Shown here: positions 1 to 10,783 of the stretch, piece by piece
Layout: the number at the start of each line of letters is the position of its first letter
Numbering within the stretch: position 1 is the first letter of the stretch
From: Promethearchaeota archaeon
GTDB lineage: Archaea > Asgardarchaeota > Lokiarchaeia > Sigyniarchaeales > SOKP01
Length of the DNA: 64,000 nucleotides
Assembly: GCA_048940925.1 (NCBI GenBank)
Contig: JBHLOC010000001.1
Location: forward strand, 1-64,000
Reading direction: 5' to 3'
Program-made: the position numbers and the translations under genes
Notes under the pieces: model-generated
What the model saw: only the letters and a program-made list of their open reading frames with translations
What the model was told of the DNA's origin: nothing
Database searches by the model: none

Positions 1-2
1 GA

Positions 3-215
3 GTGGCGTTGGATTCTGAGCGTGGATTGTTGAAGAATCAGTTAGGGATGGTGATTTTCCATCTTCAGAAGAATGAAAGAATCAATACGGTAATTGGACT
101 TCAGAAACTCATTGATGCGGCATTAATCGTCAATCCAGAGGAATTATTTAAGATTCTTGAGAGTTCGGATGCGGATGCTCAGGAGTTAGCCAAAAAAATC
201 AAGGAAGCATTATAA
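3..215 (+). CDS. C-terminal part of a hypothetical protein, probably truncated by the window edge
   Basis: Frame is open from the window start and ends ...QELAKKIKEAL-TAA, followed by a T-run. The last 20 codons recur at 3739-3799. Confidence 0.6.
   Translation: MALDSERGLLKNQLGMVIFHLQKNERINTVIGLQKLIDAALIVNPEELFKILESSDADAQELAKKIKEAL
155..215 (+). repeat. 61-bp imperfect direct repeat, copy 1 (3' end of the upstream gene)
   Basis: Ungapped alignment to 3739-3799, 51/61 identical by manual count. Confidence 0.9.
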
Positions 216-238
216 GTTTTTTTAAATCTTATTACATT

Positions 239-3200
239 TTAAAATATATTATATTTTTCTAGGGATTCTATAAAAGATTTTACGGAGTCTGGAATAGCTG
301 GATTTGGTTGTTCAACGTTGTTAAGTTCAAGGGTTCTTAGTGATTTTAAATTAGTAATACATTCAGGAATAGTTTCAATAAGATTGTTAGGAAATCTAAT
401 AACTTCTAAATTATCAAGCAAACATAGATAATCTGGAAATATTGAAAGATAAATTGCATCAGTACAGTGTAAATGTAATTCTATGACTTTCCCATTATCA
501 TTAATTTTAAAATGATGCAAAGGATACATGTCATCTTGATTTTCATCTAAATCTTCATATATCTCAGATCTTTTTAAATCCCTATTAAGAAATCTAAAAA
601 ATTTTACTAAAATTTCTGAATCTTTAGGATTGACACCCCTTTGTATGAGGTTTTGAACTTTTTCATTTAAAATAATAGGAACAAATTCCAATTCAGCAAA
701 ACACTTCTTTTGGTCTTTTTTAAATGCGATCTGAAATTCGTAAAATGAATAACGATCTTTAAACTTAGAAATGGGTGACAATTTTTTCTTAAGTTCTCTT
801 GATTTATCTAAAAATGCAATATTTTCAGGTAAGTTAATTAAAGAAGTACATCCTGCTAAGTTCACATATTCCAAATTTACTAAACCTACTGCTGAACTAG
901 GGAATGATTTTAATGATTCGCAATAGGCTAGTGTTATTCTTTTAAGATTGGTTAATTTACTAATATTCTTTGGGAGTGCTGATAGTTTTCTACATGCATA
1001 GAGATTAAGTTCTTCTAAGTATGTTAAATTACCTATACTTTCAGGAATGGACAACAATTCTCTACATCCTCTTAAACTAAGTTTCTGAAGTTTTTTTAGA
1101 TTTCCTATACTTTCTGGCAAATCTTTTAAAAAATAACAATAACTTAAATCTAATTCTTTCTGAATTTCAAGATTTCCTATGCTTTTCGGGATTTCTTTTA
1201 ATTGATTACAACTTTGCAAATTCAAAATTTTAAGAGTTTTAATATATCCAATTTCATCTGGGAGAGTTTCAAGACTCCTACATTTCCCTAATTTTAAATT
1301 CTCAAGGTTTTTTAGTTCTACAATAGTTTTTGGTAGATTTTTTAGAGATTTACAATTTTCTAAATTAAGTGTTTTAAGAGATTCTAATCCTTTTAAATCT
1401 TCGGTGAGAGTAATAAGCGACCAACATTCATTCAATTCTAAGATTTTTAATTTATTCAGCTTCGAGATATTGGAAGGAAGGCTTTTTAACGAATAACACC
1501 TAGATAATTTTAAATGTTCTAGATTCTCTAAATCACCTATTTCTTCTGGGAGAGAATTTATTGATCTACAATCAATGCAAACTAACTTTTTCAGGTCTTT
1601 TAATTTTCCAATATTTTTGGGAAGATTTGTTAATTTCTGGCAATTAATTAATTTTAGTTCTTCCAAATGATTTAAGTCTCCTATATTGTAAGGTAGTGAA
1701 GTTAAATTATGTTGCCAGACAGGACTATCTATTAACAAACCTAAATGTGTTATTCGATTTCCTTTTTTAATATATCCATGTGGACCGTGTCTTCTATTAT
1801 TTTTTTTTTTGGTCACTTCAAAGTTGGTAATCTCAGGTAATCGCTGCCCAATTAATTTTTCAATATCGTTTATTATTAAAAAGTCTTGAAATTCATTCTT
1901 GATTTTTTTACTAACAGGGGAATCACTGCTTTGGATGATCTTTCTAATAAACTCAATCACTTCTACAGCTTTTTCATTTATTAATACAGATTTAATAGAT
2001 TCATATGCTATGTCAGAAAATTTATAAAGTATGACATCAGCAGCAGCAATTCTAACAAGAATATTTGGATTTGTAGTCATTAATCTTTCCAATATTCTAT
2101 ATTCATTTTCAAATTTCACAGAAAATTTTTTTAATAAATTGATACTCTCAATTTTCCTTTTTAACGATTCCGATTTCTCTATGACACTAAATACTTCCTC
2201 TAAGGTTTCATCCTCACTTTTTATTTTTAATAAAAATTGGTTATAGATTTCCTTTGGTGATATTTGACTAATTTTAGGAGATTTTTTCTTTCTGATTAAA
2301 TATCTACGAAGTGGGTTCTGATATTCTTGATATTCAAAATATTCTTTTATAACTGGAGGGATTTCTTTTAAATTTGTACATGAAATATTAATTTTATTTA
2401 AATTAGGGATAAATACTAAACAATCCGGTAATGTTGTAATATAACTTCCATCTAAATGGAGTTTTTCAAGAGACCTTAGATTACAAATGATTTTTGGTAA
2501 TGAGTTAGGATTCAATCCGGGATTGTAAAGCATTGGACAATGTTCATATCTTAAATATTTGAGATTTTTTAGGAAAATTAGGCCTTCTGGAAACCATTGT
2601 AAATTGTGAATTCCTCTGATAGTCAATACCTCAAGATGTTTTAAGTTTTTAATCGATTCTGGGATTAATTTGATTGAACTGGCTTCAAGTGTTAATCCTA
2701 ACTCTACAATATGACCATTCTTAACAACAAATCCAAATTTTGAAATAACATCTTCCCATTTAATTTCACTAACAACAGGAATGGGTTTTTCGCATTCTCT
2801 TTCAAGGTCTAGTAAGAAATCTCTTTCTCCTTTACTAAGGCGTTGTCTTTGGTAGGAAAAAACATTTTTTTTTTCATAGTTTTTAATTTCTTTTGTTTTC
2901 GTGTAGATTTCCTCCTTTAACTTTAAAGCAGGTTCAAAAAATCCATCTAATCTTAAAATTTTTTCAATGCAATCAAGAGCATAATTATAATCCCCTCTAT
3001 AAAAATAAGCTTTCCCAAGTTGTTGCCATGCATATTTAAACATAGGATCAATTTCTACTGCTTTTTCTCCATTCTCTATAGCTTCATTATATTTTTTATG
3101 TATTAAGTTTAAAACTAGATGAATATACCATAAAATAGCTTTATTTCGATTTCTTGGGTATGAAAAAGCTTTAACAAAAGCTTCCCATGCTTCCTTAATA

Positions 3201-3580
3201 CTATTATTTTTCCAATAATATACTGCTACAATTAGCCATTCCCCGCAGTAACGCATATAATATTTTGAATCAATATAAGGTGGTTCTGACCGACCTTTTT
3301 TTAGAGGTGTATCATTATCAGTATAATTTTGAACCTTATTCAAAACATATTCAAATACTGATGATGATTCATCAGTTTTGGGCTTATATTTAAGAAGTTT
3401 ATTTACAACCTCTACAACTTTATCATTTTCGCATACCGAAGATGCATAATATCCAGTATAGTAAATCCATGAATTAATATGGTGGGGATTTAATTTCAAG
3501 GATCTCTGTATGTCTTCAATGAAACGACCACCACTCATGGCTCTTTTAAACCAGAAATCATAATCATTCGGATTAGACAA
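239..3580 (-). CDS. TPR + LRR + HEAT-like + LRR multi-repeat protein (1113 aa)
   Basis: TPR-like AWQQLGKAYFYRGDYNYALDCIEKILRLD, HEAT-like PNILVRIAAADVI, twelve 24-aa LxxLPxxIxxLxxLxxLxLxxCxx repeats and further LRR blocks at both ends. Confidence 0.9.
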   Translation of the reverse strand: MSNPNDYDFWFKRAMSGGRFIEDIQRSLKLNPHHINSWIYYTGYYASSVCENDKVVEVVNKLLKYKPKTDESSSVFEYVLNKVQNYTDNDTPLKKGRSEPPYIDSKYYMRYCGEWLIVAVYYWKNNSIKEAWEAFVKAFSYPRNRNKAILWYIHLVLNLIHKKYNEAIENGEKAVEIDPMFKYAWQQLGKAYFYRGDYNYALDCIEKILRLDGFFEPALKLKEEIYTKTKEIKNYEKKNVFSYQRQRLSKGERDFLLDLERECEKPIPVVSEIKWEDVISKFGFVVKNGHIVELGLTLEASSIKLIPESIKNLKHLEVLTIRGIHNLQWFPEGLIFLKNLKYLRYEHCPMLYNPGLNPNSLPKIICNLRSLEKLHLDGSYITTLPDCLVFIPNLNKINISCTNLKEIPPVIKEYFEYQEYQNPLRRYLIRKKKSPKISQISPKEIYNQFLLKIKSEDETLEEVFSVIEKSESLKRKIESINLLKKFSVKFENEYRILERLMTTNPNILVRIAAADVILYKFSDIAYESIKSVLINEKAVEVIEFIRKIIQSSDSPVSKKIKNEFQDFLIINDIEKLIGQRLPEITNFEVTKKKNNRRHGPHGYIKKGNRITHLGLLIDSPVWQHNLTSLPYNIGDLNHLEELKLINCQKLTNLPKNIGKLKDLKKLVCIDCRSINSLPEEIGDLENLEHLKLSRCYSLKSLPSNISKLNKLKILELNECWSLITLTEDLKGLESLKTLNLENCKSLKNLPKTIVELKNLENLKLGKCRSLETLPDEIGYIKTLKILNLQSCNQLKEIPKSIGNLEIQKELDLSYCYFLKDLPESIGNLKKLQKLSLRGCRELLSIPESIGNLTYLEELNLYACRKLSALPKNISKLTNLKRITLAYCESLKSFPSSAVGLVNLEYVNLAGCTSLINLPENIAFLDKSRELKKKLSPISKFKDRYSFYEFQIAFKKDQKKCFAELEFVPIILNEKVQNLIQRGVNPKDSEILVKFFRFLNRDLKRSEIYEDLDENQDDMYPLHHFKINDNGKVIELHLHCTDAIYLSIFPDYLCLLDNLEVIRFPNNLIETIPECITNLKSLRTLELNNVEQPNPAIPDSVKSFIESLEKYNIF

Positions 3581-3738
3581 ATGAGATCCCTCTTTTAAAA
3601 TTCAAATTTTCGTCTTATGTATTAGATATGATTATTATAATTATAAATGATTTGACTCAATTAATTCTCTTATTTTTATTTATATTTGCATTGTATAATA
3701 TTCGTTGTAGCAATCTTACAAATAAAAAAACAAAGAAC

Positions 3739-3799
3739 TCTTGAGAATTCAGATGTGGGCGTTCAGGAGTTATCCAAAAAAATCAAAGGAGTATTATAA
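3739..3799 (+). repeat. 61-bp imperfect direct repeat, copy 2 (orphan copy of the gene tail)
   Basis: Translates LENSDVGVQELSKKIKGVL* versus LESSDADAQELAKKIKEAL* in copy 1, and is also followed by a T-run. Confidence 0.9.
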
Positions 3800-3973
3800 A
3801 ATCTTTTTTTTCAATTTTAACTTTTGGAATAGAATCTTGATATTTTTGAAATGATGGATCAAATATCTTTATTTTCATCATTTAGTTCATAGTTTTTATT
3901 TAGTCGAATTTTATAAAAGACAATTTACTTAATTCTTTAAAATTGAATATTAACCTTAAATCATAAGTGGTGG

Positions 3974-4417
3974 ATGATGATAAATAAAGGTGAATGGAAA
4001 CCTCCAAAAAAACCTGAAAACGATCAAGAATATTTTAAAGCCCTTGTTAGATCTGTTTTTAGTGCTGGATTTTCATATAAAGTTATAAAAGCAAAATGGG
4101 AAGGTTTTCGGGAAGTGTTTCATAATTTTGATCCTGATAAAATTAGCCAATGGACCCAGGATGATATTTTTGCAGCAGTTAAATCCCCTAAAATTGTTAG
4201 AAATATTAAGAAAATTAAAGCAACGGTTGAAAATGCTAAAACTTTTATGGATTTAGTTAAAAAGCATGGTTCGTTTGAAGATTATTTAAAATCATTAAGA
4301 GATAAACCTTATGATGAGGTTTCAAAAATTATATCAAAAACATTTAAGTGGCTAGGACCTTCAGGCACTTACTTCTTTTTATGGAGATCAAATGAGAAAG
4401 TACCATCTTGGAAATAG
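3974..4417 (+). CDS. DNA-3-methyladenine glycosylase I (Tag-like)
   Basis: FSAGFSYKVI..KWEGFREVF..FDP and IVRNIKKIKATVENAK motifs. Confidence 0.8.
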   Translation: MMINKGEWKPPKKPENDQEYFKALVRSVFSAGFSYKVIKAKWEGFREVFHNFDPDKISQWTQDDIFAAVKSPKIVRNIKKIKATVENAKTFMDLVKKHGSFEDYLKSLRDKPYDEVSKIISKTFKWLGPSGTYFFLWRSNEKVPSWK

Positions 4418-4530
4418 GAAGTTTGAGGAATTTTTTTAATTGGTTTTAGCTTTAAATATAAATAAAATATTCAATTTAGATTATTAATAAAGTTTTACTT
4501 ATGTCTTTAGATAACAATTCAGATTATTGA

Positions 4531-5310
4531 GTGTGTAAACTTATGTATGAGATACCTTTAGTCATTGCTCGAACTGGTGATATTGAAAATGCCCCAGAGA
4601 ATACAATACCAGCTTTCGAGAGTGCGATCTTAAGGGGAGCAGATGGGGTAGAATTCGATGTCCATCTCACTTTGGATGACGAACTCATTGTTCATCACTT
4701 CTACAATCTGGGTACCACCGATAATGGTAAAGGTCTCATTTGTGAACACACACAAGCGGAATTAAGAGCACTTGATTCGGGTAGCTGGTTTAGTGAGCAG
4801 TTTGTAGGAGTGCAGAAACCTACATTGAGTGAGGTTTTCGAGTTATGCAAAGGTAGAATTAAACTCGAAGTTGACTTAAAGGATTCAAGTTTAAGTTTTT
4901 TACATAAGGTTATTGGAGAAATCGAAAGATTTGCTCTAATAGAAGACGTGGAGTTAACGACAGCTCATTACCCATTGTTGACATACATCAAGAAACTTAA
5001 TCCTGAATTGCAAACTGGGACATTCTTCTATAAACCTCCTGACTGGATGCCGGTTCGTCTTGCACAGAAGCATATATTCGACTGGAGCAATCTACTGGAG
5101 ATTAAAGTTGTCCATTTGAACATAGCATTAATTACAGCTGACTTCGTGGACAAACTACATCGAAATAGATTCATCGTGTGTGGCTCAAACTTGGATTCAA
5201 CAGAACAGATTCGATGGGGTTTGAATATGGGTATTGACTTATTCTCAACAGGTCATCTTGGAATGGCATTGCGATTAAGAGATGAGTTCATCAAGTCCAG
5301 TTCTTTATAA
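4531..5310 (+). CDS. glycerophosphodiester phosphodiesterase family protein (start may be ATG 4543)
   Basis: APENTIPAF, GADGVEFDVHLTLD and PTLSEV motifs. The usual AHRG motif reads ARTG. Confidence 0.8.
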   Translation: MCKLMYEIPLVIARTGDIENAPENTIPAFESAILRGADGVEFDVHLTLDDELIVHHFYNLGTTDNGKGLICEHTQAELRALDSGSWFSEQFVGVQKPTLSEVFELCKGRIKLEVDLKDSSLSFLHKVIGEIERFALIEDVELTTAHYPLLTYIKKLNPELQTGTFFYKPPDWMPVRLAQKHIFDWSNLLEIKVVHLNIALITADFVDKLHRNRFIVCGSNLDSTEQIRWGLNMGIDLFSTGHLGMALRLRDEFIKSSSL

Positions 5311-5330
5311 TATGTGTGGTTGCATAATGA

Positions 5331-5647
5331 ATCATTGGAGAGAACAATAAAGGGAAGGATATAATTCTGGTGAAATATAACAGTTCTAGTGTGTTGCAAT
5401 GGAATAAGACGTGGGGCTTCAGCATGAATGATGTCATGGAGTGGCAATAGATTCGTCAGACAATATTTATATTTCAGGAGTTACAAATAGTTTTGGGCTG
5501 AGAGATGGTGATATGGTTCTGGTGAAATATGGACTCGAAAGCACCATTGATTAAGGAGAAAGAGAACCAGCAATTCCGGGTTATCCCTTAGTACTGTTAA
5601 TTACTGTAATTTGTGTGGTAACAGCTATATATTTAAAGAAAAAATAA
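5331..5647 (+). pseudogene. remnant of an SBBP beta-propeller surface protein with a Loki-CTERM-like tail
   Basis: Manual translation gives DIILVKYNSSSVLQWNKTWG, then a frameshift near 5435, then GVAIDSSDNIYISGVTNSFGLRDGDMVLVKY, then TAA at 5552-5554, then AIPGYPLVLLITVICVVTAIYLKKK*. Confidence 0.8.
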
Positions 5648-5838
5648 AATTAAATATATTTTATTATCTCTTCTATAAAGGTAGCTCTAAATAAGATCTT
5701 GTGAAAGGAGTAGGAAGACGAATTAGAATCCATTAATAATGATCTAATTCAAAACAATTATAAGTAGATCCTGAAAATTTATTTGAAAAAAAATATAGGA
5801 TTTATTATTAAAGCAAAATAAAAAAAGAAAATAAATAT

Positions 5839-5872
5839 TAACCTCCTAGAGCATAGCGCTAATAGGAGGTTA
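5839..5872. terminator. stem-loop with a 10-bp perfect inverted repeat
   Basis: TAACCTCCTA (5839-5848) and TAGGAGGTTA (5863-5872). Function is inferred only. Confidence 0.4.
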
Positions 5873-5884
5873 TAATATGTATAT

Positions 5885-5932
5885 TTATAATATTGAAATA
5901 ATGAATAATAATACGACATATAAGATGTGCAT
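5885..5932 (-). CDS. possible 15-aa hydrophobic micropeptide MHILYVVLLFIISIL
   Basis: ATG preceded 10 nt upstream by GGGGTGA (SD-like) and followed by the 5839-5872 hairpin. Confidence 0.3.
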   Translation of the reverse strand: MHILYVVLLFIISIL

Positions 5933-5978
5933 AATTATTATATCACCCCTCTTTTTTATTTTTTTTTTAATTTGAACT

Positions 5979-6176
5979 TTAAACTGTTAATAAATTATCA
6001 ATAGTCTCAATTTGTTTATCCAAATTGTTTATAACTTGGCAAACATGAAAATTCTCATAAATTTTTTTTATAACATTATTTTGAATAGATTGAGAATTTT
6101 TAGAAACGTGAAATACAACATTTAAAAATTCATAATAATTCATATCCTTCTTTTTATTTCCTTCCATTTTGTTCAA
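5979..6176 (-). CDS. small hypothetical protein
   Basis: Non-overlapping 65-aa ORF with no recognised motif. Confidence 0.35.
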   Translation of the reverse strand: MNKMEGNKKKDMNYYEFLNVVFHVSKNSQSIQNNVIKKIYENFHVCQVINNLDKQIETIDNLLTV

Positions 6177-6484
6177 CTATTTTTTTAATTTTTTTTCTTA
6201 TTTTTAATTTAGATGCCATGCCATTTATAGTTCATGATCTATAACTTTTCATAGAGTTCGAATTTTTCATAGAGCTTTAAAACTATAGAAAAAGTAATGT
6301 AAAAAAATAAGTTATTTGCTAAAAAAAAGTTAATTACCGCAGAATTAGTAGTTAAATCTGAAGTGATAAATCTTACTGATAAGTTATTATATATACAAAA
6401 AAATTTTAGGATAGGAAAAAATCTATAAATATCAAAATAAGAATAAATTTAATAAAAATAAATAGGAATTGGAGGAATATAATA

Positions 6485-6865
6485 ATGAAAGATTTAACTG
6501 TTATTTTGAAACATCGTCCAGGCACGTTAGCTGATATGGGCGAATTATTAGGTAAGCATGGTATTAATATGGAAGGATTATGCGGATTTCCTTCAAAGGG
6601 TGAAGCAATAATACATATTTTGGTGGAAGAGGATACTACGGCCCGTTACATACTCGAAGAGGCTGATTATGAAGTACGTGCTGTGCGTGACGTTATAGTT
6701 ATAGATATTGGCAATATTGTGGGAAAACCAGGTACAGGAGGGAAGATGGCTCGCAAAATAGGTAATGCTGGTGTTAATATTGATTTAATTTATTTTGCTG
6801 AGAATAACAGGCTAGTTCTCGGAGTTGACAATCTAGAAAAAGCTAGCGCCGCATTGGGTCTATAA
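6485..6865 (+). CDS. tandem ACT-domain (amino acid-binding) protein
   Basis: HRPGTLADMGELLGKHGINM and KPGTGGKMARKIGNAGVNI ACT repeats, GGAGG SD upstream. Confidence 0.85.
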   Translation: MKDLTVILKHRPGTLADMGELLGKHGINMEGLCGFPSKGEAIIHILVEEDTTARYILEEADYEVRAVRDVIVIDIGNIVGKPGTGGKMARKIGNAGVNIDLIYFAENNRLVLGVDNLEKASAALGL

Positions 6866-7110
6866 TTTAATAAAGAAATCACTACCATAAATTTAAAGAA
6901 GGAATGACATTTTGAATCAATTAGAAATACTTGTATTGACTTACTTGCCAAAGAAAGAATATGGAGCGGATTAAATAGGTTCAATTCGGTTAAAGAATAA
7001 AAATTAACTATTTTTCATATTTTTTAACTTTTTAACTTTTTAGGAGGAAAAAATTTTAAAATTAAGTTCATTTTTGGCTTTATTCTTATTAAAAAGTAAG
7101 AATCGTAAAA

Positions 7111-7554
7111 GTGGTCGTTGATAAAAAGAAGTTTGTAAAAATCATAATATCAATTTTTACACTCATAATAGTTTTTTTAGCACCTTATGGATATCGTATA
7201 GATTTAGGTCCTGGTCCTAATTCTATAACAGCCATGATATGGGAATATTCACCATATTACTATTTCAGATACCTTACTCCATTGAGATATTATATTCAAT
7301 TTTACATATTTCGAATGGTTGTTCTTTATTACATTATTAGATTCCTTCAAGAAAAAGTATCAAGGAAGAGGGTTATTATTGTAGGAATAATCAATGAGAT
7401 AATTCCTTTAATTCTCTCAATTCCAGGAGCTCTAATACTTAACTCAGACGGGGAAAATCTCATGCCTATTATAATTTCAATTCCAATTTTAGTTCTATTT
7501 GATATATTTGTTGTTTACTTATTTCCAAAAATTGAAGTGGAAAAAAAACAATAA
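7111..7554 (+). CDS. hypothetical membrane protein
   Basis: About four hydrophobic segments. Confidence 0.65.
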   Translation: MVVDKKKFVKIIISIFTLIIVFLAPYGYRIDLGPGPNSITAMIWEYSPYYYFRYLTPLRYYIQFYIFRMVVLYYIIRFLQEKVSRKRVIIVGIINEIIPLILSIPGALILNSDGENLMPIIISIPILVLFDIFVVYLFPKIEVEKKQ

Positions 7555-7668
7555 ATTCCATTAAAAATTATCCCCAATCAACAAAATAGTTTTATCCTCT
7601 ATCTAAAGTGTGCCCTTTTTAAAATTATTCTGAAAATTATTATAAAAATATATAAAAATGAGTTTGAC

Positions 7669-8262
7669 ATGATAATAGACCACGTTGATAGAACGATATC
7701 AATCAAGATAGTTTATTATGGACCTGCCTTTTCAGGTAAGACAACATCAATTAAAGCTTTATTTTCCCATTTAGGAAAGGGAGAGGATCTTTATAGCATC
7801 GAAAGTACTGTAAATAGGACATTATTTTTTGATTATGGAACGGTTACGTTTCAAAATGAAGAGTGGCGGCTTAAAATTCATATTTATACTACAACGGGTC
7901 AAGATTTTTATATTATAACTAGACCAATCACATTACGTGCTGTTGATGGAATAATTTTTGTATTAGATTCTCATAAAGAAGTTTATAATCGAAATTTAGC
8001 ATCATGGAAAGAACTTTTCACATATTTTCAAGAATCAATTAAAGATATACCGATTTTAATCGCTTTTAATAAACAGGATTTATTGGACAAATTTAATCCT
8101 ACTAAATTTTTAAGAGAAATTGAATATCACAAATACAAAAATATGGATTCAAGATATACCTCTGCAATTAATGGAAATGGAATTTTAGAATGTTTTGAAG
8201 ACATTTTAACCTTAATTTTAGGCAAATATTATAAGTATAAATTACTTTCAGCTGTTAATTAA
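7669..8262 (+). CDS. MglA-like small GTPase
   Basis: KIVYYGPAFSGKTT, RTLFFDYG, TTGQ, NKQD and SAING motifs. Confidence 0.85.
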   Translation: MIIDHVDRTISIKIVYYGPAFSGKTTSIKALFSHLGKGEDLYSIESTVNRTLFFDYGTVTFQNEEWRLKIHIYTTTGQDFYIITRPITLRAVDGIIFVLDSHKEVYNRNLASWKELFTYFQESIKDIPILIAFNKQDLLDKFNPTKFLREIEYHKYKNMDSRYTSAINGNGILECFEDILTLILGKYYKYKLLSAVN

Positions 8263-8626
8263 TTAGAAAGTGAGTTTTTTAGTACACTCCTAAACCAATA
8301 ATGTTTTCCATTTCTTATCTAATTATTTAGTCCCATTTCTATTATGGTTTGTAATTTCTTTAAATGGGCGTCAAAATTGCTTTGGAATTTTGGGATAATA
8401 TGGATTAACTATATCTATTATTGCCAACTATTCGCATCTTTATTACATTCTATTTACTCAGCATATAAAGTGAATTTAATTATTCAGTATTTTTAAAAAT
8501 ATTTTATCTTATGTAAAAATCTTTTAAAGATAAAAAATCTGTAATTTTGAAAGAGACCATGTATTTATAAAAAAAGTATGTTTTAATTGTATTATTCAAT
8601 AGGAAATTAAAAATGGTGGATTATAC

Positions 8627-9217
8627 ATGAAATTAGAATTAAAAGATGTGAGAGAGGAAGATAGAGGAATACTCGCTCCTTGTGGCATTATTTGTTTAGG
8701 ATGTGACACATATTTAGGAGAAAGTTTAGAAGCAGCTAAAAAACTTAAGAGTATTTGGGAAGGAGGAAACTTAATAGATGCCAGTATAACTATTGGGTTA
8801 AATCCTAACGACATAAAAATGACTTTGGAGATATTGAGTCAATATATTGAGAAAACTGACAGAGAAAAATGTCCCGGATGTTTTAAAGGAGGATTTGCTT
8901 CTCAATTTTGTGGTATAGCGAAATGTATTAAATCTAAAGGATACTGGAGCTGTGCTGAATGTGAAGATTATGATCCTATGGCAGAAAAGCCATGCCCCAA
9001 TGAGGGTTCTGCTCCTGTACCAATGGCAGATCCAGGAAAAATGACTAGCTTGATTTGCACGAGATATAGCAAAGATACTTGTAATAATTTAAAAAGATGT
9101 CGTGAAATTGGTTATAATGCATTCATAAAAGAAATTAAAGAAAAAGTTAAAAATGGTTGGAGAACTTGGCAAGTTGTCAGTGATGAGATGGTCTTTACAA
9201 ATACAATGAAGAAATAA
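8627..9217 (+). CDS. Cys-rich DUF3795-like protein
   Basis: APCGIICLGC, CPGC, CGIAKC and CAECEDY pattern. Confidence 0.7.
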   Translation: MKLELKDVREEDRGILAPCGIICLGCDTYLGESLEAAKKLKSIWEGGNLIDASITIGLNPNDIKMTLEILSQYIEKTDREKCPGCFKGGFASQFCGIAKCIKSKGYWSCAECEDYDPMAEKPCPNEGSAPVPMADPGKMTSLICTRYSKDTCNNLKRCREIGYNAFIKEIKEKVKNGWRTWQVVSDEMVFTNTMKK

Positions 9218-9301
9218 CTTTTTTTGGATTATTTTTTACTTCATTTTTTTATATTTAATAAAATATACTTTTACCTTTCAAAAAGATAGTAGGACTATTG
9301 T

Positions 9302-9769
9302 TTATAAGATTCGATTTTTAGATTGTGAAAAGGTTTTAATTGGTTTTAAAACAACACAAACCCTTTCAACACTTTCAATATCGCTTCGGGAGCGAAACAT
9401 TTCTAATAATGCATCTAATTCATTAGTATCAGGGACATTTACTTTTATTAAAATACCGCATCTTCCTGCTAATTTAAACACCTCTTCACACTGAGGAAGA
9501 ACGACAGTTTCTCTTAGTAATTCTTTAACCTCAGATTCATTTTTAGGTATTAACGTTAGAAAGGCATAAATACATCTCTCATCTTCACGACATATCTTAA
9601 TAGTAAATTTTTCAATTATTCCCCCCTCCTGCAATTTGATCACTCGCTTTCTTACAGTTGATTCAGATAATCCAACCTCAGCAGCAATTTCATGATATGG
9701 TCTTCTTGAATCTTCAAGTAACATTTCAAGAATCTTTTTATCTTTTTCATCAAGGTTTCTCACAATCAA
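9302..9769 (-). CDS. Lrp/AsnC family transcriptional regulator
   Basis: LDEKDKKILEMLLEDSRRPYHEIAAEVGLSESTVRKRV HTH. Confidence 0.9.
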   Translation of the reverse strand: MIVRNLDEKDKKILEMLLEDSRRPYHEIAAEVGLSESTVRKRVIKLQEGGIIEKFTIKICREDERCIYAFLTLIPKNESEVKELLRETVVLPQCEEVFKLAGRCGILIKVNVPDTNELDALLEMFRSRSDIESVERVCVVLKPIKTFSQSKNRIL

Positions 9770-9850
9770 CCCTCTTATTTTTTTCTTGATTTATAAAAAA
9801 AATTAATTATTTTGTGTTATTTCAATTTTGATAATTTTGTTTATATAATA

Positions 9851-10783
9851 TCAGAAATCTTTGAGTAGTGGATTGAATAATCTCTCATAATGGACTGCCA
9901 TGCAGTGAATACCAGCAGCTTTAGTAGTTTTTTTAATTTCTTTGATGAATGGTTCAAAAAATTCTAAATTTATTTCATCAATTTTTGCGTATTTTTCTTT
10001 TTTATCTTTAATTTTTTTAGTAGCTTTTAAGGAATTTAAAAAATCTTTTGGAACTGAAACTCCTGGGATATATTCATTAAAGTACCATGCAATTCCATAA
10101 TTTTTAATAGGAAATAAGCCTAGCAAAACAGGCGTATTATATTTCTCTAGTTCTTTTAAAAACTCTTTAGCATCATCAATATCAAATGAAGTTTGAGTTT
10201 GAATAAAATCTGCACCAACTTCTATTTTTCTACCAACTTTTAAAATTTCAGGTTCTCTTGGATTTGAGTTAGGGTTTGCAGCACATCCTACGTTTAATTC
10301 GGGTTTCCCTCCTGCAATTTCATTTCCCTCTAAATCTGTTCCTTCATCAACCATTTTAGAAACTAGATCAATTAATTGAGTGGAATCTAAATCATATACA
10401 GGTCTAGCATTTTTATGATCACCAAGAGCAGAATGATCCCCAGTTAACGCAAGTAAATTTTTAAGTCCAAGTATAGCTCCGCCCAAAATATCACCAAATA
10501 ACGCAATTCGATTTCTATCTCTAACTGTCATCTGCCAGATAGCCTCTAGTCCAACTTTTTCTTGAACTAAATAGCAAGGTACCATTGAACATGTATAAGC
10601 GTCTCCCTGTGGTCCATCGGTGACATTAGCAGCAATTATTTTTCCAGTTTTTTTCATTTCTTCTGCAGAATGAAGCACATGGGCTAAATCAAAATCTTTT
10701 TCAGGTTCTAATTCGCCTGTAAACACGAATTTACCTTCTCTGATCGTTTTTACTAAATTACTGAATGCGGGTCGGTTAGTCAA
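9851..10783 (-). CDS. metF: methylenetetrahydrofolate reductase MetF
   Basis: ELEP, NVTD, TVRDRNR, LALTGD and GADFIQTQ motifs. Confidence 0.9.
   Translation of the reverse strand: MTNRPAFSNLVKTIREGKFVFTGELEPEKDFDLAHVLHSAEEMKKTGKIIAANVTDGPQGDAYTCSMVPCYLVQEKVGLEAIWQMTVRDRNRIALFGDILGGAILGLKNLLALTGDHSALGDHKNARPVYDLDSTQLIDLVSKMVDEGTDLEGNEIAGGKPELNVGCAANPNSNPREPEILKVGRKIEVGADFIQTQTSFDIDDAKEFLKELEKYNTPVLLGLFPIKNYGIAWYFNEYIPGVSVPKDFLNSLKATKKIKDKKEKYAKIDEINLEFFEPFIKEIKKTTKAAGIHCMAVHYERLFNPLLKDF

Follow-up and report, generated by a model that had tools for sequence, protein, structure and literature searches.

A duplicated gene end beside a variable gene slot in an Asgard archaeon, a likely scar of recombination without an integrase

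The first 64 kb of contig C40 (hereafter the window) were analyzed in the 4.8-Mb assembly of a Promethearchaeota archaeon (genome G000; 90 contigs, 29.6% guanine plus cytosine [GC]). At the left edge of the window lies host113, a gene of about 113 amino acids (aa), and its final 61 nucleotides (nt) recur on the far side of a gene encoding a TPR-LRR protein. The window begins at the contig end, so that only the last 70 codons of host113 are present (3-215, + strand), truncated by the contig start. We consider the repeat to be, probably, the scar of a recombination that needed no integrase, in which a replacement gene end was imported together with foreign neighbors, an event that would have recurred at host113. 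DNA from a related archaeon would recombine into the 3' part of host113, carrying its own version of the host113 end followed by different neighbor genes; host113 would stay whole, and the old end would be left stranded downstream as a non-coding relic. Repetition at the same gene would produce arrays of relics and a different cargo in every genome, and use of the same route at many other G000 genes would make it a general one, independent of any integrase.

The two copies, 155-215 (copy 1) and 3739-3799 (copy 2), both on the + strand, matched without gaps at 51 of 61 positions. Copy 1 is the working 3' end of host113 and is translated as LESSDADAQELAKKIKEAL followed by a stop codon. To the left of 155 and 3739 similarity dropped at once to the background level, and on the right it faded about 8 nt past the common TAA, with T-runs in both copies; the direct repeats measured 61-69 bp, with 3523 bp between them. 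At the local base composition, the probability of a match of at least 51 of 61 was about 3e-18 per pair, and about 6e-9 over all same-strand pairs of the window. The gapless repeat with its shared stop codon and T-runs, which was the starting point of the original prediction, was thus reproduced. Nine of the ten differences between the copies were transitions, and a 13-nt block, CCAAAAAAATCAA, was identical in both (190-202 and 3774-3786, + strand). Searching the 4.8-Mb assembly for more copies of the 61-mer, at both the DNA and the protein level, revealed no third copy.

The contig of the source run itself covers positions 1-6784. The copy 1 junction was reproduced by a contig of run X7 spanning 59-972, and the copy 2 junction by a contig of run X2 spanning 3359-3849, each with 0 differences. 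Both junctions were found in contigs assembled independently from other samples, which ruled out an assembly chimera; the repeat structure is therefore real.

By nucleotide profile, copy 2 corresponds to host113 nt 280-341, and it reads LENSDVGVQELSKKIKGVL followed by a stop codon. It is followed at 3800-3844 (+ strand) by a T-run and then CAATTTTAACTTTTGGAATAG, a 45-nt flank that was homologous to relic flanks in the metagenome loci L065 and L067 and resembled the flank of intact host113 in L048/L049 and in the related genome G003. Copy 2 carries A-to-V and A-to-S substitutions at codons where intact orthologues show little or no variation, and its ending, KGVL, was seen in one intact orthologue; the C-terminal KEAL of copy 1 was unique among 16 aligned orthologues. 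Because of the flank homology, the substitutions at invariant codons, and the occurrence of KGVL in an intact orthologue, copy 2 is the original end of host113, which now lies stranded outside any gene with its ancestral downstream flank still attached. This agrees with the original proposal of a displaced gene end. The same proposal stated that no coding sequence lies upstream of copy 2; no intact gene was found there, but the 24 codons at 3665-3738 (+ strand), in frame with copy 2, are a relic of the end of a beta-helix gene, with a transmembrane anchor (...IIFVVAILQIKKQR).

The identity of this second relic came from the related genome G067. Positions 3685-3783 aligned with G067 L033:14995-14897 at 78% over 100 nt (E 7e-15), and the translation of 3668-3787 aligned with residues 346-385 of a 385-aa G067 protein at 52% (E 3e-6). 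That protein is a NosD-like beta-helix (Pfam NosD/Beta_helix) with a transmembrane anchor, and in G067 the host113 relic forms its in-frame C-terminal tail and stop codon; there, a recombination scar has been co-opted as a coding tail. The junction between the beta-helix tail and host113 nt ~280 is common to the window and G067, and is therefore older than the LRR gene or moved independently of it. In the window, the LRR gene occupies the space once held by the body of the beta-helix gene.

Given the G067 arrangement, one could ask whether the relic in the window is itself functional, as a terminator, as a membrane micro-protein of 37-44 codons (3665/3686-3799), or as a portable tail with a stop codon. 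Its frame is open over 44 codons, encoding a transmembrane helix and a charged tail; a relic serves as the C-terminus and stop of the 385-aa protein in G067; and in roughly half of all relics the frame is open through to the native stop. Nevertheless, the body of the beta-helix gene is gone in the window, and a TTG at 3686 is the sole start codon available, an ATG being absent. The relic has substitutions at residues that the parent gene conserves, stops and frameshifts interrupt other relics, and no Rfam family was matched in 1-9000 or 1-10000. A functional role for the relic is, on this balance, highly improbable.

The present cargo between the copies, the TPR-LRR gene (239-3580, - strand), encodes 1113 aa from a TTG, or 1099 aa from the ATG at 3538 according to the protein database call. 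It is convergent with host113, with a stop-to-stop distance of 23 nt, and its GC content of 28% matches the genome. Relatives were detected at the DNA level in 2 of 54 genus genomes and at the protein level in 6 of 154 genomes of the order. The homologue in G061 (51% at the aa level) lies on a short contig in another context, has no host113 relic, and adjoins what looked, on visual reading, like the tail of a different gene; its contig, only 4 kb long, showed no repeat bracketing it. Six metagenome homologues in a large protein collection showed 62-70% identity over the first 620 residues, and a comparison of the LRR N-terminus with genome contigs found no relative. The TPR-LRR gene is accessory and not ancestral at this slot, in line with the insertion originally proposed.

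When contigs of four public runs were aligned to 1-8300 at 90% likeness, a contig of run X2, which belongs to a different study than the probable source run, was observed to join 189 to 3774, skipping exactly 3584 bases. The shorter side of the joint comprised 92 letters, and 16 letters fitted both sides; the joined contig follows copy 1 up to G189 and copy 2 after the block CCAAAAAAATCAA. Single-nucleotide variants flank the joint, among them 122 A>G and 3883 T>C. In X2, the depth was 4.3 for this empty contig, 4.4 for the LRR-bearing contig across copy 2, and 8.6 for the common downstream contig; contig depths are crude measures, and the sum of 4.3 and 4.4 against 8.6 fits two forms in one population. 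Since the empty and LRR-bearing contigs occur at about equal depth, the slot is polymorphic, the 3584-base unit being present in some cells and absent in others, and the switch that distinguishes the two forms falls within the identical 13-nt block. The empty form may be ancestral, or it may have arisen by secondary deletion between the repeats. Of the junctions that had been suggested as a check, one skipping 3584 bases was recovered; a circle junction of the unit was not listed among the run contigs, in which one would rarely appear. The 34-mer expected at an empty site had no exact match among metagenome contigs. A separate X2 contig with a depth of 12.9 may join 3958 to 7623, removing the block from a glycosylase gene to the gene orf7111; this joint was not trusted, as one of its sides comprised just 21 letters and the two positions showed no obvious repeat.

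Comparison with relatives placed copy 2 in a larger set. About 30 host113 relics were found in genus genomes and 35 metagenome loci, nearly all of them in the orientation of the intact gene, downstream of it, and reaching its 3' end. Arrays of up to four relics were observed in G018, where intact host113 is accompanied by relics of nt 35-342, 177-333, and 265-341, and in the metagenome loci L060 (four within 6 kb), L065 (three), and L067 (two). The interval between host113 and a conserved small GTPase gene had different content in every genome examined, which bears out the variable slot that the original prediction offered as its second option. Slot cargo in relatives included LRR proteins (G018, G006), a beta-helix-TIR protein, an SBBP propeller, MFS transporters, ferredoxins, a lumazine-binding-like protein, and an M28 peptidase, all of them ordinary genes.

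The position of the M28 peptidase gene was informative. In G024, host113 directly adjoins this gene in convergent orientation; in G003, G001, and G067, it is a relic that holds the M28-adjacent place, and intact host113 lies kilobases away behind new DNA. A relic beside the M28 gene with the intact gene elsewhere is the signature of an insertion into the 3' part with regeneration of the gene. In G024 and G045, little or nothing is inserted between host113 and its ancestral neighbor. A bracket of the same type was also found at a second gene: in G067 (L033:13501-17031), a 3.1-kb insert is bracketed by a duplication of the final 40 codons of orf7111 and holds the M28 peptidase gene, the host113 relic, and the beta-helix gene ending in that relic, the block lying between intact orf7111 and the duplicated orf7111 end.

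Left edges of the relics ranged over host113 nt 166-298, with at least 15 different edges. Orthologous relics, recognized by a common flank or cargo, differed in this respect (257 in L067, 298 in G001), and a lumazine-binding-like cassette, 95% identical between G067 and G018, was joined to host113 nt 169 in one and ~283 in the other; the edges therefore erode after formation.

Such shrinkage also fits another history, in which host113 once had a complete tandem paralogue, since reduced by deletions to copy 2, with the LRR gene merely lying in between. A second, almost full copy with an open frame (nt 35-342) does exist in G018, 7.3 kb from the intact gene, and orthologous relics with different left edges indicate that relics shrink over time. 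Decay of tandem paralogues is nevertheless distinctly unlikely as the explanation. The 3' end survives in about 27 relics, against a single 5' fragment, neighboring DNA was never duplicated along with host113, the relics keep the ancestral flank or neighbor and the intact copy adjoins new DNA, and the same polarity recurs genome-wide. None of the relatives examined showed copy 2 to be a decayed tandem paralogue or the LRR gene to be ancestral at this position, the two outcomes that had been named beforehand as refuting the insertion.

This genome-wide polarity was examined by comparing G000 with itself and retaining direct-repeat pairs no more than 15 kb apart in which one copy was coding and the other non-coding. 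Of 35 such pairs, 18 consisted of a gene 3' end and a same-orientation relic downstream; a 5' end with a relic upstream was found in 3, a 3' end with a relic upstream in 4, and an internal stretch in 10, with the relic downstream in 9 of these 10. In the 3'-end pairs, the duplicated stretch started 49-311 nt before the stop and ended from -15 to +45 nt of it. A repeat end pinned near the stop fits incoming DNA that is homologous only up to the end of the gene and then continues into the donor's neighbors. The scarred genes are unrelated to each other and have no common sequence, and the cargo comprises ordinary genes over 0.5-8.9 kb; among the longer cases are those on C51 (318 nt), C35 (276 nt), and C79 (235 nt). 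At least 18 further genes bear such scars, on contigs C6, C7, C17, C18, C26, C30, C35, C51, C55, C56, C57, C68, C79, C82, and C84; they include what we take, from reading the N-termini and without a family search, to be aIF-1A, glutamine synthetase, a radical-SAM enzyme, and two acyl-CoA-ligase-like paralogues. The same scar at 18 or more unrelated genes, with varying left edges, argues for general homology-anchored recombination and not for a site-specific element. As a separate observation, a convergent gene of ~368 aa comes after each of the paralogous ligase-like genes (C17:5136-6161 and C57:76581-77603), and these two convergent genes are homologous.

The original prediction named a single-gene cassette as one option, and a non-autonomous integrative cassette is the first competing account: the 61-nt copies would be attL and attR, the 13-nt block their core, and the integrase would act in trans or be of a novel type. 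Direct repeats do bracket the unit, the skip is of exactly 3584 bases with the exchange within the longest identical block, almost all relics keep the conserved core of the gene end, and the arrays of relics resemble what serial accretion at an att site would leave. The open reading frames of 216-7668, however, included no integrase or mobile-element gene (LRR, glycosylase, GDPD, ACT, and one of no known family), nor was a tyrosine recombinase (PF00589) found in the slots of G018, G003, G001, and G008, serine recombinases and transposases not having been searched in either case; the absence of an integrase that had been noted from the window alone thus extends to four relatives. The only tyrosine recombinase of G000 is a 316-aa protein, probably Xer-like, on another contig, C41. 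No tRNA was found in 1-9000 or 1-10000, so that this is not a tRNA-type att site. The cassette account also has to accommodate at least 15 different left edges, the same scar at 18 or more unrelated genes without a common sequence, a left arm of the relic that is an old junction with a different gene, and no circle junction seen among the run contigs. We regard it as rather unlikely, and its tidy single-gene form is not supported in view of the older left junction, a slot extending to 7668, and left edges from 166 to 298.

Recombination without an integrase thus remains our preferred reading, and its likely form would be one homologous crossover in the conserved gene combined with an illegitimate or short-homology join; a single Campbell-type crossover with a circularized fragment is the alternative form. 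For the window, we infer that the relic first formed beside the gene of a beta-helix surface protein and that the TPR-LRR gene later replaced the beta-helix gene except for its last 24 codons. Several observations weigh against this reading or soften it. Neither an intermediate of recombination nor a donor locus was observed. An identity of only 84% between the copies neither dates the event nor separates a donor allele from a target duplication, and the identity between relic and intact gene over host113 nt 215-341 is likewise ambiguous between a donor allele and duplication in situ. The junction common to the window and G067 could come from transfer and not from common descent. The contig joining 189 to 3774, aligned at 90% likeness and with its bases unread, could belong to a very close sister species. 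At 13 nt, the identical block offers little length for recombination of the RadA type, and it would be suitable for a site-specific enzyme, too. Finally, edge erosion blurs the argument from variable left edges.

Among the relatives sampled first, 22 of 24 genus genomes carried host113; a full-length orthologue is found, for example, at L011:1498-1836 (- strand), and an alignment of orthologues showed a nearly invariant central part. The gene is bordered on one side by a conserved divergent gene of 89 aa and on the other, beyond the variable interval, by the conserved gene of a Ras/Arf-like small GTPase (7669-8262, + strand), which throughout the genus delimits the slot on the right. No other G000 contig was found to hold the N-terminal part of host113, and no conspecific host113 locus was recovered from the metagenome contigs, where the best host113 match reached 88% at the aa level. 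No Pfam family matched. The AlphaFold model is an all-helical bundle with a predicted local distance difference test score of 81, for which a Foldseek search of the PDB gave no significant match. In a second PDB search, independent of Foldseek, death-fold domains (DED, CARD, PYD, DD) filled nearly all of the top 30 places, including the caspase-8/FADD DED, with Z scores of only 5-6.3, which are weak for a helical bundle. The predicted structure of host113 therefore bears a weak resemblance to the death fold; a stand-alone death-fold-like adaptor in an Asgard archaeon would merit its own study.

In several genomes, host113 adjoins LRR, TPR-LRR, or beta-helix-TIR genes. The beta-helix-TIR case is a 1361-aa protein of G018 (L013:7380-11465, - strand), with NosD/beta-helix repeats and a C-terminal TIR domain, encoded between two host113 relics; it represents an immune-type architecture in an Asgard archaeon. 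A bolder proposal would make the stranded ends the reusable sites of a cassette-exchange platform beside a death-fold-like adaptor gene, working without an integrase or with an unknown recombinase and shuffling immune-type receptor genes (LRR, TPR-LRR, beta-helix-TIR) between Asgard strains. We hold this to be decidedly improbable; if true, the platform would be comparable in function to an integron or to a receptor-diversifying locus.

The remainder of the slot, up to 7668, holds several unrelated features. Positions 3581-3664, the AT-rich region upstream of the LRR gene (- strand), have no similarity to relatives, and the GC content of 3581-3738 is 20%. A methyladenine glycosylase gene (3974-4417, + strand) and a GDPD phosphodiesterase gene (4531-5310, + strand) are absent from the locus in all relatives examined. 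They are followed by a frameshifted 3' fragment of an SBBP beta-propeller gene (5337-5644, + strand, ~95 codons), whose intact homologue of 447 aa lies in the G018 slot; a 156-nt coding repeat of this fragment matches arrays in many genus genomes. Positions 5935-6264 are matched at the DNA level (66-79%) by several G000 sites, including C77:211175-211332 and C54:11517-11734, as well as by many relatives, with small open reading frames of 62-72 aa at the C77 and C54 matches. An ACT-domain gene (6485-6865, + strand) and orf7111 (7111-7554, + strand) occur at the locus only in G018 and G067 besides the window.

Taken singly, the host113 locus is an ordinary recombination scar. Its wider interest lies in a natural presence/absence polymorphism through which an Asgard archaeon would gain and lose whole genes without mobile-element machinery. 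Conserved genes would act as homology anchors, and the old end stranded by each event would be a scar that can be dated. These scars are common in G000 and form genus-wide arrays at host113, and they could serve to order and rate gene acquisition in the lineage that comprises the closest prokaryotic relatives of eukaryotes. They may also explain part of the patchy distribution of the 'eukaryote-like' LRR, TIR, and beta-helix genes.

Among known systems, integrase-borne elements that insert into gene 3' ends are the first to compare. Like them, the locus pairs a displaced copy with a regenerated gene end, could accrete units serially, and has flanking repeats that share an identical 13-nt core in which the exchange lies. 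Asgard mobile elements with a tyrosine integrase target tRNA genes (PMC8813620). Here, in contrast, no integrase or mobile genes and no tRNA were found, and the cargo is ordinary and cellular. The left edges range from 166 to 298, a spread that is blurred by the erosion of orthologous relics. The locus differs from an integron in that no tyrosine recombinase was found at it in G000 or in four relatives, and in that the relics are homologous to the end of a coding gene.

Toxin genes of the rhs/cdiA type offer a second comparison. There, an intact gene is followed by displaced older 3' ends in the same orientation ('orphan' modules); recombination in the conserved part brings in a new end, and the displaced ends are different toxin tips with their immunity genes. 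The arrangement of an intact gene followed by same-orientation displaced 3' ends is shared by host113, whereas the host113 relics are decaying copies of one tail of 20-60 aa and the cargo is unrelated to the host gene. A further comparison is with homology-facilitated illegitimate recombination and Campbell-type insertion, known from bacterial natural transformation, in which one homologous anchor and a nearby non-homologous join import foreign neighbors without a dedicated enzyme. This route predicts that left edges vary and that homology breaks off where the anchor gene ends. To our knowledge, it has been shown experimentally only in bacteria, and we know of no described DNA uptake or corresponding pathway in Asgard archaea.

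Of the classes described so far, the nearest is insertion with long target duplication, which, as cited in PMC2853133, was derived from Helicobacter genome comparisons (Nobusato et al. 2000, Gene 259:99) and was extended by Furuta, Abe & Kobayashi (2010, NAR 38:2428; PMC2853133). The latter work defined the class by an insert of <20 kb between direct repeats of >30 bp and of variable length, present once in the empty form. Its inserts are a few kb long and lack a transposase or integrase, and its repeats are unique in the genome and nearly identical (e.g. 44/46, 417/423), some of them overlapping a gene 3' end; the cases are bacterial, with restriction-modification genes as cargo, and no archaeal case was retained in the screen (PMC2853133). 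At host113, an insert of <20 kb likewise lies between direct repeats of >30 bp, the repeat occurs once where the insert is missing (the X2 joint, and the near-empty G024 and G045), no mobility genes were found, and the repeat is unique in the genome. The differences are that the host113 locus is archaeal, carries LRR cargo, has repeats that are only 84% alike, and was hit serially at one gene, and that the right edge of its repeat is pinned to the gene end. A right edge at the gene end suggests the import of a donor allele rather than a true target duplication. The locus is an archaeal, serial, and population-polymorphic case of a known kind of scar, and not a new kind of mobile cassette.

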